A stretch of 64,000 bases of DNA. Origin: Escherichia phage ECp13. A model generated the notes under the pieces. That model worked only from the letters and a program-made list of their open reading frames with translations, had not been told where the DNA came from and made no database searches. Location: the sequence record PP274704.1. The stretch is one strand, 5' to 3'. The first letter of the stretch is position 1; the number at the start of each line of letters is the position of its first letter. The position numbers and the translations under genes were made by a program. Below are positions 133 through 16,328 of the stretch, in pieces.

Positions 133-498
133 ATGTATAATGGCAAAAAGTATGAGCTTGTTCCAAGACTTATTGATACATTTATTAGTTATCGCCCACG
201 TTCTAATTCATCAATAGTTAAAATTATTCAAGAAAATGGCGGATGGTTTGAAGTTAAAGAATCTTTCTTTGCTGACGGATTTAAAGTAATAAAACACATT
301 GAATGCGCAAATGGAAAGCATTTTTACTTTAACGTCTGCGAAGATGAATTTCATTGTTTTCGTGAGTATAAAGAACCAACTTCTGAAGAAGATGAAGTTA
401 AAGACAAGGTTTCTGGCGTAACAAAAATTCACTGCATTGTTGACGAAAACAATGTAGACGAAATCATTGAACTTTTGCGAAAAACTTTCAAAAAGTAG
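133..498 (+). CDS. hypothetical small early protein, paralog of 556..900
   Basis: 121-aa ORF; shares a spaced residue pattern with the next ORF. Confidence 0.5.
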   Translation: MYNGKKYELVPRLIDTFISYRPRSNSSIVKIIQENGGWFEVKESFFADGFKVIKHIECANGKHFYFNVCEDEFHCFREYKEPTSEEDEVKDKVSGVTKIHCIVDENNVDEIIELLRKTFKK

Positions 499-533
499 TT
501 TACAGAAGGGTAGTAGTGTGATACTATTACCCT
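498..533 (+). promoter_or_regulatory. early promoter with stem-loop (PeSL-like): GTTTAC -35, TGaTACTAT extended -10 inside an inverted repeat
   Basis: GTTTAC at 498-503, 18-nt spacer, TG-a-TACTAT at 519-527; arms GGGTAGTA and TATTACCC. Confidence 0.5.
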
Positions 534-555
534 ATTAAATACTGAGGAAATTAAA

Positions 556-900
556 ATGATGGAAACTGGTAAATTTTACGTATTAGACCCTGCTGCCAAA
601 AAACACTTTATCGCTAGTAGTCCTGATGATAATTCGTGCATGGTCAAGTTGATGGAACAACATGGCAATTCCTTCAAAGTCCTGGATATGTGTTATATTG
701 AAGGTGATTATTTTGTTGAAAAAGTTGAAATGAAAGATGGCACCATCCTGAATAGTATGGGTGATGATGATGAGTACTTTGAACTCGCTGAATGGGAATT
801 TCGCCACTTCCTAGAAGTTGATGGCGATGCTCCTGATGTTGATACTCAAACTATTCATGTGCAGGTAAATCATAAAAATGCGGCGGAAGTTATTGCTTGA
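556..900 (+). CDS. hypothetical small early protein, paralog of 133..498
   Basis: 114-aa ORF preceded by an early-promoter-like element and a GAGGAAA ribosome-binding site. Confidence 0.5.
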   Translation: MMETGKFYVLDPAAKKHFIASSPDDNSCMVKLMEQHGNSFKVLDMCYIEGDYFVEKVEMKDGTILNSMGDDDEYFELAEWEFRHFLEVDGDAPDVDTQTIHVQVNHKNAAEVIA

Positions 901-932
901 TTAAAGCAACTTTTGATATTCAGTAAAAGTAG

Positions 933-969
933 TGTACAACTAAATGGGGCTATGATATAATGGTCCCAT
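933..969 (+). promoter_or_regulatory. early promoter: GTGTAC -35, TGaTATAAT extended -10, flanking inverted repeat
   Basis: GTGTAC at 933-938, 17-nt spacer, TATAAT at 956-961; ATGGG and CCCAT arms. Confidence 0.5.
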
Positions 970-998
970 ACTGAGTTAACAAATAACTGGAGAATAAA

Positions 999-1241
999 AT
1001 GAGATTACAACGCCAGAGTATTAAAGATTCAGAAGTTAGAGGTAAATGGTATTTTAATATCATCGGTAAAGATTCTGAACTTGTTGAAAAAGCTGAACAT
1101 CTTTTGCGTGACATGGGATGGGAAGATGAATGTGATGGATGCCCTCTTTACGAGGATGGAGAAAGCGCAGGATTCTGGATTTACCATTCTGACGTTGAAC
1201 AGTTTAAAGCTGATTGGAAAATTGTGAAAAAGTCTGTTTGA
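999..1241 (+). CDS. hypothetical protein
   Basis: 80-aa ORF with a GGAG ribosome-binding site, preceded by an early-promoter-like element. Confidence 0.45.
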   Translation: MRLQRQSIKDSEVRGKWYFNIIGKDSELVEKAEHLLRDMGWEDECDGCPLYEDGESAGFWIYHSDVEQFKADWKIVKKSV

Positions 1242-1251
1242 GGAAAATATT

Positions 1252-1611
1252 ATGTCTGACATTTGTATAACTGGAATTACCCAAGTAAAAATTCGTTGTC
1301 AACTTAAAACCGCGCCTGGGACGGCTTTTATTAATTTATCACACGACATAGATTCCCGTGAAAGCCAGTTAATGGGTGTAATTACATTTTACGCTGGATT
1401 TGGCGGAAACGAATTTACTGTAGGCGAAATTGTCGGCCGTAAATTAAAAGTTCAGAAGAACGTATTAGAACTTTTTAATGACCTTTACGACGATAGTGAC
1501 GAAGTTTTTGATGAAATCGCGCAAGCAGTTAACAGAGGAATGGTAACTTTAGTTAAAATGATTGACGCTAGCGGATATGCTCATGACCCTTTTCAATGGG
1601 AGATAATATGA
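1252..1611 (+). CDS. hypothetical protein
   Basis: 119-aa ORF tightly packed against its neighbours. Confidence 0.45.
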   Translation: MSDICITGITQVKIRCQLKTAPGTAFINLSHDIDSRESQLMGVITFYAGFGGNEFTVGEIVGRKLKVQKNVLELFNDLYDDSDEVFDEIAQAVNRGMVTLVKMIDASGYAHDPFQWEII

Positions 1612-1853
1612 TTTTTGTATTTGAATTTATGAATGATGAATTCGATTATGCAATTTTTAACGCATTGCATAATCCTGATTTAAATGAATTTAATGAAATG
1701 TTTTCTGACGCTTTGAGTATGTCAGAAGAATACTGTGGAGAATGTCAACGTGTTTGTGTGACAGTCTTTGAAAACAAAGAAAAGACATATGAAGAATTAT
1801 TCTTTGATGCTAATAAAGCCACTGAATGGTTTATTGAAAGGGGTTTTGCGTAA
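1596..1853 (+). CDS. hypothetical protein
   Basis: 85-aa ORF whose stop overlaps the frd start. Confidence 0.4.
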
Positions 1854-2437
1854 TGATTAAATTGGTATTTGCTTATTCTCCAACTAAAACGGTCGAAGGC
1901 TTTAATGAATTAGCATTCGGTTTAGGTGATGGTTTACCATGGGGACGAGTTAAAAAGGACCTTCAGAATTTTAAAGCTCGTACTGAAGGCACAATTATGA
2001 TTATGGGTGCTAAAACGTTCCAGTCATTGCCTACATTACTTCCAGGTCGTAGTCATGTGGTGGTATGTGATATTAAACGCGGCTATCCTGAAACTAAAGA
2101 TGGTGATTTGGCTCATTTTTATATTACCTGGGATGAGTATGTTACCTTGGTAGCCGGTGGACGTATCCAATTATCCAGTCCTAATACAAATTTTGAAACG
2201 TTTATCGATTCCAGCGAAAATCGCATCAGTGTAATTGGCGGGCCTGCTCTGCTATATGTTGCATTACCTTATGCAGATGAAGTAGTTGTTTCTCGCATCG
2301 TTAAAAGGCATCGTGTTAATTCAACGGTTCAATTAGATGCAAGTTTTCTTGATGATATAAGCAAGCGTGAAATGGTTGAAAGTCATTGGTATAAAATAGA
2401 TGAAGTAACAACCCTTACGGAATCAGTGTATAAATGA
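1853..2437 (+). CDS. frd: dihydrofolate reductase
   Basis: 194 aa; sequence recognised as T4-type DHFR ([22 protein letters not shown]); sits immediately upstream of td. Confidence 0.9.
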
Positions 2438-2640
2438 GCAATAAATTAAAAGTTAAGGATGTTCCTAATGCTATGGCCCTTTTTATTTGTCGGCAGATGC
2501 ATCAAGGGCCTATGACACCAAAACAATATCTTAAAGGTGAGCGTTCTTTAGGATTTACTCGCAAAGCAAAACAAATGGTTAAATTAGGATATAAGCCTAA
2601 CTTTGCCAAATATCCTTCTACGTATTCTTGGATGAACTAA
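2434..2640 (+). CDS. hypothetical small protein
   Basis: 68-aa ORF bridging frd and td; start and stop overlap both. Confidence 0.3.
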
Positions 2641-15153: not shown

Positions 15154-15161
15154 TATAAATA
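15154..15161 (+). promoter_or_regulatory. late promoter TATAAATA between gene 31 and rIII
   Basis: Exact TATAAATA in an intergenic position. Confidence 0.4.
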
Positions 15162-15300
15162 ATAATATGAATTGGGTGTCGGAATAATAAGTTAACCGAA
15201 CAATTCTACGTGGTAGTCTACAACTGAGAGATCTGTCGAAAGAAGATGAAATTCAGAAGAACGTGACTACCGAGTTTTAATCTCTAACGAGAATTTTTAA

Positions 15301-15549
15301 ATGATTAAACAATTACAACACGCTCTTGAACTGCAACGAAACGCATGGAATAATGGTCACGAAAACTATGGCGCATCTATTGATGTTGAAGCCGAAGCTC
15401 TTGAAATCCTGCGTTATTTCAAACATCTGAATCCTGCTCAAACTGCATTAGCTGCTGAGCTTCAGGAAAAAGATGAACTTAAATATGCTAAGCCTCTGGC
15501 TTCTGCTGCGCGAAAAGCAGTTCGTCACTTTGTGGTAACACTGAAGTAA
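15301..15549 (+). CDS. rIII: rIII lysis-inhibition accessory protein
   Basis: 82 aa; sequence recognised as rIII; position between 31 and 30. Confidence 0.8.
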   Translation: MIKQLQHALELQRNAWNNGHENYGASIDVEAEALEILRYFKHLNPAQTALAAELQEKDELKYAKPLASAARKAVRHFVVTLK

Positions 15550-15668
15550 GTATGTTGACGAGGTTTATGGTTATCCTGTCGGTAAATATTCAAAACCTAT
15601 GTTCCCCTTGAGGGCTTGCGCAGGCAATGCCAATAAGTCCTGCATTTTCATTTAAAAGAGAATTTATA

Positions 15669-15845
15669 ATGGCAAAACAAGCTAAAGCAAAGAAAGCAGT
15701 TGAAAAGAAAGTTGGTGATTCTAAACGCGCTGGCTACAAGCGTGGGTCGAACTCTCGTATCAATCAAACTGTTGAGAAGATCATGCGCCGAGCACGTGCG
15801 GTTCTTCGAGATGATGCTTCTCGTTTTGGTAAGCAGAAAGCATAA
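15669..15845 (+). CDS. hypothetical small basic protein
   Basis: 58 aa from ATG 15669 (the track ORF begins at 15627); Lys/Arg-rich; terminator immediately downstream. Confidence 0.4.
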   Translation: MAKQAKAKKAVEKKVGDSKRAGYKRGSNSRINQTVEKIMRRARAVLRDDASRFGKQKA

Positions 15846-15850
15846 GTTGA

Positions 15851-15879
15851 GGACTCCTTCGGGAGTCCTTTTTTATTTT
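15851..15879 (+). terminator. rho-independent terminator
   Basis: GGACTCC-TTCG-GGAGTCC hairpin followed by TTTTTTATTTT. Confidence 0.75.
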
Positions 15880-15897
15880 CCAAAGATTGCACAAAGT

Positions 15898-15941
15898 TGT
15901 TTACAGTATAGTTCCTTTGTGATAGTATTATCTTACACAAA
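15898..15941 (+). promoter_or_regulatory. early promoter with flanking inverted repeat
   Basis: GTTTAC at 15898-15903, 18-nt spacer, TG-a-TAGTAT at 15919-15927; TTTGTG and CACAAA arms. Confidence 0.45.
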
Positions 15942-15955
15942 CAAAGGAGAATAAA

Positions 15956-16288
15956 ATGAAAACGATTAATCTGAACGCTACAGTTAAAACTAAATGCTTC
16001 AATGGTAAATATGATGAAACTATGTGGTTCTTAATGGCAGTTGAAGGTGATATTATTGAAGTAGAAACAACAGAAGGTATGGGAACAGATTTCACCTTTA
16101 CAATTCAAGTTCATAATTTCTTTACTGGTTGGATTTATGAATTGAATACAGTAATCGTTGGAAAAATTGAACAAAATGAATTGGGTGAATGGTATTATGT
16201 TACAGCTCGCCAACGTGCCGAACGCTTAATTGAGAAGATGAAAAAAGTTGGTAAACTTGACATGCAGCACTGGAAAGTAGTAAAATAA
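15956..16288 (+). CDS. hypothetical protein
   Basis: 110-aa ORF with AAGGAG ribosome-binding site and an early promoter upstream. Confidence 0.45.
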   Translation: MKTINLNATVKTKCFNGKYDETMWFLMAVEGDIIEVETTEGMGTDFTFTIQVHNFFTGWIYELNTVIVGKIEQNELGEWYYVTARQRAERLIEKMKKVGKLDMQHWKVVK

Positions 16289-16290
16289 TT

Positions 16291-16328
16291 GTTTACTTTG
16301 GTACAGGATATGATATTATATACCTGTA
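16291..16328 (+). promoter_or_regulatory. early promoter with stem-loop (PeSL-like)
   Basis: GTTTAC at 16291-16296, 17-nt spacer, TG-a-TATTAT at 16311-16319; arms GGTACAGG and CCTGTACC. Confidence 0.55.

Follow-up and report, generated by a model that had tools for sequence, protein, structure and literature searches.

Introduction

Promoter early stem-loop (PeSL) elements of T4-type phages were defined in two papers (Arbiol et al. 2010, PMC2839356; Comeau et al. 2014, PMC4122927), where the traits given are an upstream stop codon in an A/T-rich stretch, a sigma-70-type promoter, a stem-loop overlapping it, and a Shine-Dalgarno (SD) sequence with a start codon. Here, elements of this kind are analysed in a 64,000-nucleotide (nt) stretch of the genome of Escherichia phage ECp13 (record PP274704.1; one strand, 5' to 3'; hereafter, the window), in which seven predicted T4-type early promoters are each overlapped by a hairpin that appears to be maintained as a structure. 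Five of the sites, named E1-E5, had been pointed out in an earlier reading made from the letters alone (the sequence-only reading); the two that were added are designated 9161 and 24678.

In the phi1 PeSLs, two positions of the stem-loop are commonest, one of them being over the -10 box, and a phi1 PeSL stem-loop lowered the expression of downstream lacZ as much as the rrnB T1 terminator, with the authors also speculating on a recombination protein that binds the stem-loop (PMC2839356). Promoter and terminator activity and the formation of mini-circles were addressed in that paper by reporter assays and inverse PCR. For the PeSLs of PST and T4 the promoter consensus is TTTACW-N17-TAYWAT (PMC4122927), and AT-rich elements of the T-even IP locus are attributed to Repoila et al. 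1994, as cited in PMC2839356. T4 early promoters themselves are described as an UP/-35/TGn/-10 arrangement with further conserved positions (Hinton 2010, PMC2988021). A related architecture is found at T4 e, soc, 49 and I-TevI, where a promoter lies inside a hairpin that sequesters the SD, so that the long transcripts are silent and the mRNA started at the internal promoter is open (PMC3014915). Both the cassette concept and the T4 early promoters are published, and the finding is, in this sense, already known. What may be added on the basis of the present comparison is a pair of further elements, evidence for selection and specificity of the hairpin, a geometry in which the predicted start site splits the hairpin, and the conservation, gene by gene, of two distinct forms, along with quantitative support for what had been a descriptive observation in the PeSL papers.

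Early promoters of the window

By similarity, the window is a Tequatrovirus (T4-like) genome that is colinear with T4: megablast searches with its first 17-25 kb returned more than 1000 records of T4-like phages, and the top matches, at approximately 97% identity, all belong to Tequatrovirus. Across the 64 kb there are six matches to the motif GTTTAC-N14/15-TGnTAnnnT, with 0.08 expected and none of 100 shuffles containing more than one, and all six are on the + strand of the early region, within the first 25 kb. The seventh site, E2, falls outside the exact motif and reads TGTACA-17-TATAAT. It is only the T4-specific motif that discriminates, a scan with a generic sigma-70 consensus yielding 74 sites versus the 67.5 expected. 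The gap between -35 and -10 is 18 nt after GTTTAC (17 nt in E5), and at every site a TG stands one base ahead of the TAnnnT hexamer. Each element would offer the host sigma-70 RNA polymerase an A-rich upstream region, a GTTTAC -35 box, the TGn extension and the -10 box, a composition that, with its UP-like A-tract and identical spacing, is that of the T4 early promoters, for which the reviews consulted, PMC2988021 among them, do not discuss an overlapping dyad symmetry.

The sequence-only reading had placed a GTTTAC -35 box at all five of its sites. All five elements were located where it had put them, with the -35 box confirmed for E1, E3, E4 and E5, but E2 carries GTGTAC, one base off. Its list was also incomplete, having overlooked two elements that match the motif exactly, namely 9161, which is inside the range it covered, and 24678, which is outside.

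The whole T4 genome was assembled and scanned for sites of the early-promoter type; about 40 were found on the early strand, the opposite strand having five, all of them weak. Near-identical T4 orthologs exist for six of the seven window sites (E1, 146143; 9161, 136336; E3, 133331; E4, 130310; E5, 129918; 24678, 123093), the comparison with the T4 genome giving no counterpart of E2. The T4 GenBank record names an 'early promoter Pe133295 between cd.2 and cd.3'; position 133295 is exactly 7 nt past the -10 box of the T4 ortholog of E3, which ties the E3 site to an annotated T4 early promoter. The consensus of the T4 early promoters is the subject of work by Liebig & Ruger 1989, cited in PMC9391042. 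A literature search found no genome-wide map of T4 start sites or 3' ends. By taking into account motif and position, all seven sites are predicted T4-type early promoters, and orthology with T4 makes a strong case for their activity in ECp13.

Hairpins overlapping the promoters

When compared with dinucleotide shuffles, all seven window hairpins are far more stable than expected, with z values from -2.3 to -6.3 and minimum free energies (MFE) from -12.1 to -24.4 kcal/mol; the five elements of the sequence-only reading, for which folding had been proposed as a check, span the same z range. The excess is also seen when the -35, TG and -10 bases are held fixed (p <= 0.02 for all seven). In the latter procedure, which was applied to 37 T4 early promoters and the seven window sites and in which permutation was limited to the spacer and to 35 nt downstream, 64% of the 44 sites reached p<0.05, with a mean z of -2.8. 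A wider sample was obtained by scanning the IMG/VR database with the DNA pattern, which recovered, from pieces of about 40 T4-like genomes, 255 unique cassettes grouped in 92 sequence clusters; retrieval anchored on proteins gave 5-14 loci per gene, the pattern scan yielding many more. The mean z of the 255 unique cassettes is -2.4, and z is below -2 in 47% and below -3 in 37% of the 92 clusters.

The possibility that hairpins are a general trait of intergenic gaps was considered and rejected for the window, since a hairpin was found in only one of six gaps that lack an early promoter, as opposed to six of six early-promoter gaps (all at z <= -3.1). The single exception, in the gap that separates 30.7 from 30.6, is a UUCG hairpin, and no significant hairpin was found in window gaps that carry MotA-box, middle-promoter-like sequences. 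No Rfam family matched in 1-25200. Taken together, the shuffling and gap comparisons are evidence that the overlapping hairpin is selected as a structure and that, in the window, it is specific to early-promoter gaps.

Conservation at orthologous positions

Conservation was addressed, in the strongest of the tests, by a procedure blind to structure, in which homologs of the downstream gene were identified by tblastn, their upstream regions taken and collapsed to lineages sharing less than 75% identity. Of 25 such lineages, 19 have a hairpin with z<-2, with stem sequences that are unrelated between lineages, so that the inverted repeats described in the sequence-only reading are conserved, as structures, at orthologous positions. 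The proportion is highest upstream of frd.1 (6/6 lineages) and 30.7 (5/5), followed by alc (4/5), alt.-3 (2/3) and 30.8 (2/6). The turnover is well illustrated by the region upstream of alc, where the arms differ between lineages (AAGTCCCTCGTGTT/AACATGAGGACTT; CCCCGTTTGGTT/AACCAAACGGAG; TCTCCTCAT/ATGAGGAGA; CCTCGTTTGTT/AACAAACGAGG). The geometry appears constant for each gene across genera: the SD is covered at alc in all four structured lineages, at frd.1 the stem hugs the -10 box in all six, and at 30.7 it mostly does so. In the 14 loci available for E5, the stem is unchanged and the flanks are variable, a single C-to-T change leading to a G.U pair.

Among the E3 orthologs, the replacement of GGTAGAGTT/AGCTCTACC by GGTAGGACT/AGTCCTACC corresponds to two double compensatory pairs, one from A-U to G-C and one from G-C to A-U. 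In the eight distinct E3 sequences, 87.5% of cells are paired, as compared with 33-59% when the partners are slid. A covariation analysis of 39 cassettes in one register (91% paired versus 69% in shuffles) was set aside, the sequences having been chosen for that register.

Two geometries and the position of the start site

The seven elements, all on the + strand, fall into two classes. In E1, E2, E3 and E5 the stem hugs the -10 box and the SD is free, 10-19 nt past the stem. E1 (498-558), upstream of a frd.2 paralog, has its -35 GTTTAC at 498-503, TG at 519-520 and -10 TACTAT at 522-527, with a hairpin that includes G.U pairs (stem 507-518/522-533; MFE -15.4, z -3.2), a predicted start at about 534, SD GAGG at 544-547 and ATG at 556; the -35 box overlaps with the stop codon of frd.2 (TAG, 496-498), and the T4 ortholog has an identical stem. 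E2 (932-1001), upstream of frd.1, consists of -35 GTGTAC at 932-937, TG at 953-954 and -10 TATAAT at 956-961, a stem with two G.U pairs at 944-953/960-969 (MFE -15.8, z -3.2), a predicted start at about 968, SD GGAG at 989-992 and ATG at 999. In E3 (12486-12548), the ortholog of T4 Pe133295, the -35 is at 12486-12491, TG at 12507-12508 and -10 TATTAT at 12510-12515; the stem spans 12496-12508/12513-12525 (MFE -17.2, z -5.3) and is followed by SD GAGG at 12534-12537 and ATG at 12546, with the start predicted at about 12522. E5 (16291-16358), upstream of 30.7, has -35 at 16291-16296, TG at 16311-16312, -10 TATTAT at 16314-16319 and a core stem formed by GGTACAGG (16300-16307) and CCTGTACC (16323-16330; MFE -17.7, z -6.3), the arm ending at 16330 rather than at 16328 as first indicated; its start is predicted at about 16326, and SD GGAG and ATG are at 16346-16349 and 16356.

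In the second class, formed by E4, 9161 and 24678, the spacer just 3' of the -35 box pairs with the SD. E4 (15899-15958), upstream of 30.8, has -35 at 15899-15904, TG at 15920-15921 and -10 TAGTAT at 15923-15928; the arm in its spacer, at 15912-15920, is paired to the segment 15941-15949, where the SD AAGGAG is located (MFE -12.1, z -2.3), the predicted start is at about 15935 and the ATG at 15956. Element 9161 (9161-9221), upstream of alc, has -35 at 9161-9166, -10 TATAGT at 9185-9190 and a long hairpin (9167-9185/9200-9217; MFE -24.4, z -5.1) with SD GAGG (9210-9213) in its 3' arm, a predicted start at about 9197 and ATG at 9219. Similarly, in 24678 (24678-24741), upstream of alt.-3, -35 and -10 TATAGT are at 24678-24683 and 24702-24707, and the hairpin (24686-24702/24717-24733; MFE -23.0, z -4.4) extends over SD GAGG at 24727-24730, with the start predicted at about 24714 and ATG at 24739. 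Across the cassettes, SD and ATG lie 30-45 nt past the -10 box, and stop codons are found over the -35 box or a few nt from it in E1, E3, E5 and 9161; the promoter would be packed, in this arrangement, in a gap of about 60 nt that starts at the upstream stop codon and ends with the next SD and ATG. The sequence-only reading had drawn the -10 box in a loop between flanking arms: the overlap of stem-loop and promoter stands, but in E1, E3 and E5 the 3' arm includes some or all of the -10 box, and in E4 the 3' arm is the SD, some 20 nt downstream of the -10 box, a different geometry.

By placing the start 7 nt past the -10 box, it is predicted, for E1, E2, E3 and E5, to be within the 3' arm or immediately beyond it, and for E4, 9161 and 24678 to be between the arms. 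With the start past the 5' arm, the transcript of the element itself would lack this arm, and the hairpin would be formed only in read-through RNA coming from upstream. That the hairpin acts in RNA is favoured by the comparison of the two strands, the sense one giving the better fold in 177 of 252 cassettes, with equal means for the null, and, by a margin of 2.9-9 kcal/mol, in each of the seven window elements; G.U pairs number two in E2 and three each in 9161 and 24678. The explanation that we hold to be probable is, then, that of an immediate-early promoter overlapping an inverted repeat that is selected for its structure, whose hairpin is formed only by read-through RNA. The action of the hairpin in RNA and all functional consequences outlined below are what we infer from sequence and geometry.

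According to this explanation, the fate of the downstream cistron would be set, through the hairpin in the read-through RNA, by the promoter from which its transcript originates. With E4, 9161 and 24678 no translation of 30.8, alc and alt.-3 would be expected from the read-through RNA, and the promoter-proximal RNA would be open. The similarity to T4 e, soc, 49 and I-TevI is in the location of the SD in a helix, the 5' strand of which precedes the predicted start, but the internal promoters of those genes are late or middle ones, turning the gene on late, whereas here the promoter is early, and in E1, E2, E3 and E5 the SD is uncovered. The hairpins of the latter four most likely would mark where the upstream transcription unit ends on its 3' side, acting as an attenuator or as a barrier to 3' exonucleases. 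If the SD-covering class works as predicted, it would correspond, with an early promoter, to the classic mRNA switch of T4 lysozyme, and would be part of the poorly understood shut-off of early genes. For annotation purposes, the seven sites could be labelled as early promoters and boundaries of transcription units in a T4-like genome. A stronger version, in which early promoter and RNA hairpin are one designed unit with the start site splitting the hairpin, so that the gene senses its own as opposed to read-through mRNA, is put forward tentatively and seems to us somewhat doubtful; if it were true, the SD-covering class would restrict the translation of genes like alc to the first minutes of infection and would in this way add to the still unexplained early shut-off.

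Several observations weigh against an RNA hairpin selected for such a role. About 40% of the T4 early promoters have no significant hairpin, and they include the most repeated T4 cassette family. Some of the sense bias comes from the TG and TAnnnT bases being fixed, and outside them interior G.T versus A.C pairs are 88:48 for unique sequences, but 27 versus 22 when counted per cluster, which is not significant. The E3 covariation is modest or borderline, 28-31 of 500 shuffles reaching the observed measures with only eight sequences. Pairing of SD and spacer shows no excess over spacer shuffles (24% versus 19%, p=0.15), a result that is probably due to the retention of the pyrimidine-rich composition in the shuffles. 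Finally, none of the seven hairpins has a U-run, the terminator scan flags none of them, and at least 5 T are found in the next 8 nt after only one of 109 such hairpins across phages.

Part of these data could be taken to indicate that the hairpins are functionless by-products of the promoter consensus, with its TG..A.T mini-palindrome, of the tight packing of signals, or of template-switch mutation at quasi-palindromes. The inner two or three pairs do come from invariant promoter bases (pairs 21-30 and 22-29), and the promoters devoid of a significant hairpin and the finer tests that failed to reach significance (SD-spacer pairing, G.T versus A.C per cluster, E3 covariation) fit such an origin. 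It is nevertheless very unlikely, given that the excess stability persists with the promoter bases fixed, that the hairpin is kept in most independent lineages despite turnover of the stem, that in the window it marks early-promoter gaps and not the others, and that its geometry is conserved for each gene.

The lack of U-runs rules out canonical intrinsic terminators for the seven hairpins, the tails of which are A/C-rich (e.g. CAAAACAAA), so that termination at these sites, if any, would be non-canonical. It also bears on the view that they are ordinary Rho-independent terminators, with no more than an overlap with the next promoter, as a literal use of 'composite promoter-terminator' would have it. 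They are called terminators in the PeSL papers themselves, the phi1 stem-loop behaved like rrnB T1, and the position right after upstream stop codons would suit a terminator; against this are the composition of the tails, the paucity of T-rich ends also across phages and the fact that three of the hairpins end at the SD. Moreover, the only element flagged by the terminator scan is a separate one, the canonical intrinsic terminator with a UUCG loop at 15849-15878 on the + strand (GAGGACTCC-TTCG-GGAGTCCTT, then a T-run), between 30.9 and E4 and directly upstream of the latter. The terminator view is accordingly regarded as highly improbable.

Comparison with PeSL elements and gene shuffling

The PeSL-type reading of the early promoters and their stem-loops is supported, every sequence-level trait given in the two defining papers being present: all seven sites have -35 and -10 boxes about 17 nt apart and a stem-loop within or next to the promoter, and the location is intergenic, with an upstream stop codon in an A/T-rich stretch and SD and start codon at the 3' end. 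The composite layout and the intergenic location ahead of small accessory open reading frames (ORFs) are those of the phi1/RB49 PeSLs (PMC2839356), and the E1-ORF-E2 arrangement, as opposed to a single cassette in T4, mirrors their ORF192 example. The association with blocks of small ORFs of unknown function, as initially described, is only roughly correct, since frd/td/nrdA and cd, too, are found downstream of E2 and E3. The elements differ from those of phi1/RB49 in the -35 box, which is the T4-type GTTTAC and not TTGACA, and in the stems, which are AT-richer and variable, with no polyG/polyC, the similarity being mostly at the level of motifs. Comparable elements are also the PST/T4 PeSLs (PMC4122927) and those of the T-even IP locus, which belong to the same phage group, share the promoter consensus and have, on T4 early promoters, stem-loops that are weak, AT-rich and not uniform in size. 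However, according to the figure legend in PMC4122927, the PST stem-loop (AGNA-loop-TCNT) is just upstream of the promoter, whereas the window stems flank the -10 box or reach the SD; the upstream type is matched in the window only by the terminator ahead of E4 (AGGA...TCCT). The window stems that overlap the -10 box correspond instead to the commonest phi1 subclasses (PMC2839356) and to the T-even IP-locus elements.

The similarity of promoter, SD and ATG between copies is such that the cassettes may also offer short stretches of homology to recombination, as the PeSL idea has it. With respect to T4, extra DNA is present at 559-988, bounded by the ATG of E1 and the SD of E2 and carrying a 114-amino-acid ORF along with E2, and at 12549-13067 (RB32ORF214c), beginning right at the ATG of E3. 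The frd.2/frd.1 slot takes four configurations across phages, with differing ORFs and promoter-hairpin cassettes, resembling the published case of an ORF with two PeSLs versus a single PeSL in a relative. On the whole, only three of about 14 indel breakpoints with respect to T4 are at cassettes, the rest including introns, homing-endonuclease genes and four further small-ORF indels, and three is indistinguishable from the share of gene boundaries that have a cassette. In addition, T4 recombines at microhomologies of 6-10 bp anywhere in the genome (PMC9391042). The description of the elements as mobile modules linked to gene shuffling is therefore only weakly sustained, and a role of the cassettes in mobility or shuffling is plausible, the data being suggestive only.

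A direct explanation of PeSL-linked shuffling would be at hand if the inverted repeats acted as DNA, either as cruciforms or single-strand hairpins that are hot spots for recombination or endonucleases, or as dyads at the promoter that are bound by a protein. An inverted repeat is after all a property of DNA, the indel boundaries at E1, E2 and E3 coincide exactly with the cassettes, and the variable frd.2/frd.1 slot and the recombination protein envisaged by Arbiol et al. point in the same direction. So does the preference of the dyad axis for -12/-11, observed in 9.8% of clusters against 1.0% of shuffles. However, G.T pairs in the stems of E2, 9161 and 24678 would weaken a cruciform, folding is better for the sense than for the antisense strand, stems that are wholly different between elements and lineages leave no common site for a sequence-specific protein, the majority of indels with respect to T4 are away from the elements, and T4 recombines at microhomologies throughout its genome. 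Action at the DNA level is on balance unlikely, and the read-through RNA hairpin is retained as the preferred explanation.

As to self-similarity among the cassettes, only 9161 and 24678 are a repeat, the remaining sites sharing promoter and SD motifs alone. The segments 9161-9217 and 24678-24733 are direct copies 15.5 kb apart, with a match of 54-57 nt at 96-98% identity, and the same pair is found in T4 at 136336 and 123093. Recombination between the two copies would remove essential genes; their near-identity may be a product of gene conversion. E1 and E3 have the SD region GAGGAAATT(A/G)AAATG in common. The most repeated early-promoter cassette of T4 (...tggTACTATacaactatcaactactgatacggatttGGAGAATAAAATG) is found at 167086, 163673, 146875, 70696, 55384 and 27080 (loci L025, L001, L023 and L022); it is the best candidate for homology-driven recombination, and it has no copy in the window.

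The 114-amino-acid ORF inserted between E1 and E2 (556-900) is a tandem, diverged paralog of frd.2, being recognized by Pfam FRD2 and 28% identical (E=6e-11) to the neighbouring frd.2 (133-498). RB32ORF214c (12546-13073), after E3, gives a weak match to the same PHROG (phrog_622, E=1e-4). In T4, the promoter at 146143 is followed by a good SD and by an unannotated 22-codon hydrophobic ORF, MFAPYIMAAVMLVCLYLLIKAC (T4 146083-146015; L001 approximately 22016-22084, minus strand), which is conserved in two IMG/VR contigs and sits in the slot of the frd.2 paralog of the window.

Genomic setting and other differences from T4

In orientation, the + strand of the window is equivalent to the minus strand of T4. 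At 1-25100, the early and middle genes follow the T4 order, namely frd.2, frd.1, frd, td, nrdA, nrdB, denA and rnlA, then alc, pseT, cd, 31, rIII, 30.9 to 30, alt and alt.-3, the late baseplate genes being beyond 25100 on the opposite strand. In the denA-rnlA gap (7982-8032) and in the 31.1-31 gap (14762-14817), a MotA-box-like TGCTT is found about 12 nt before a TAnnnT, which suggests that these gaps hold middle promoters. There are two hairpins with a C(UUCG)G tetraloop, the terminator at 15849-15878 and that at 16731-16746, between 30.7 and 30.6, which has no T-run on the + strand.

As compared with T4, the window is without the td intron and I-TevI (3188/3189), the mobE and nrdB.1 segment (6318-6374), and the nrdB intron and I-TevIII (7038/7041). 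In rnlA (8033-9157), a one-base deletion in a C-run at about 8672 (GATAGCCCTAAA in T4, GATAG-CCTAAA in the window) splits RNA ligase 1 into ORFs 7998-8729 and 8726-9157, and may be either a real frameshift or a sequencing error. Finally, at approximately 20500-24650 the window has two full-length tandem alt paralogs, where T4 has one alt and the remnants alt.-1 and alt.-2.

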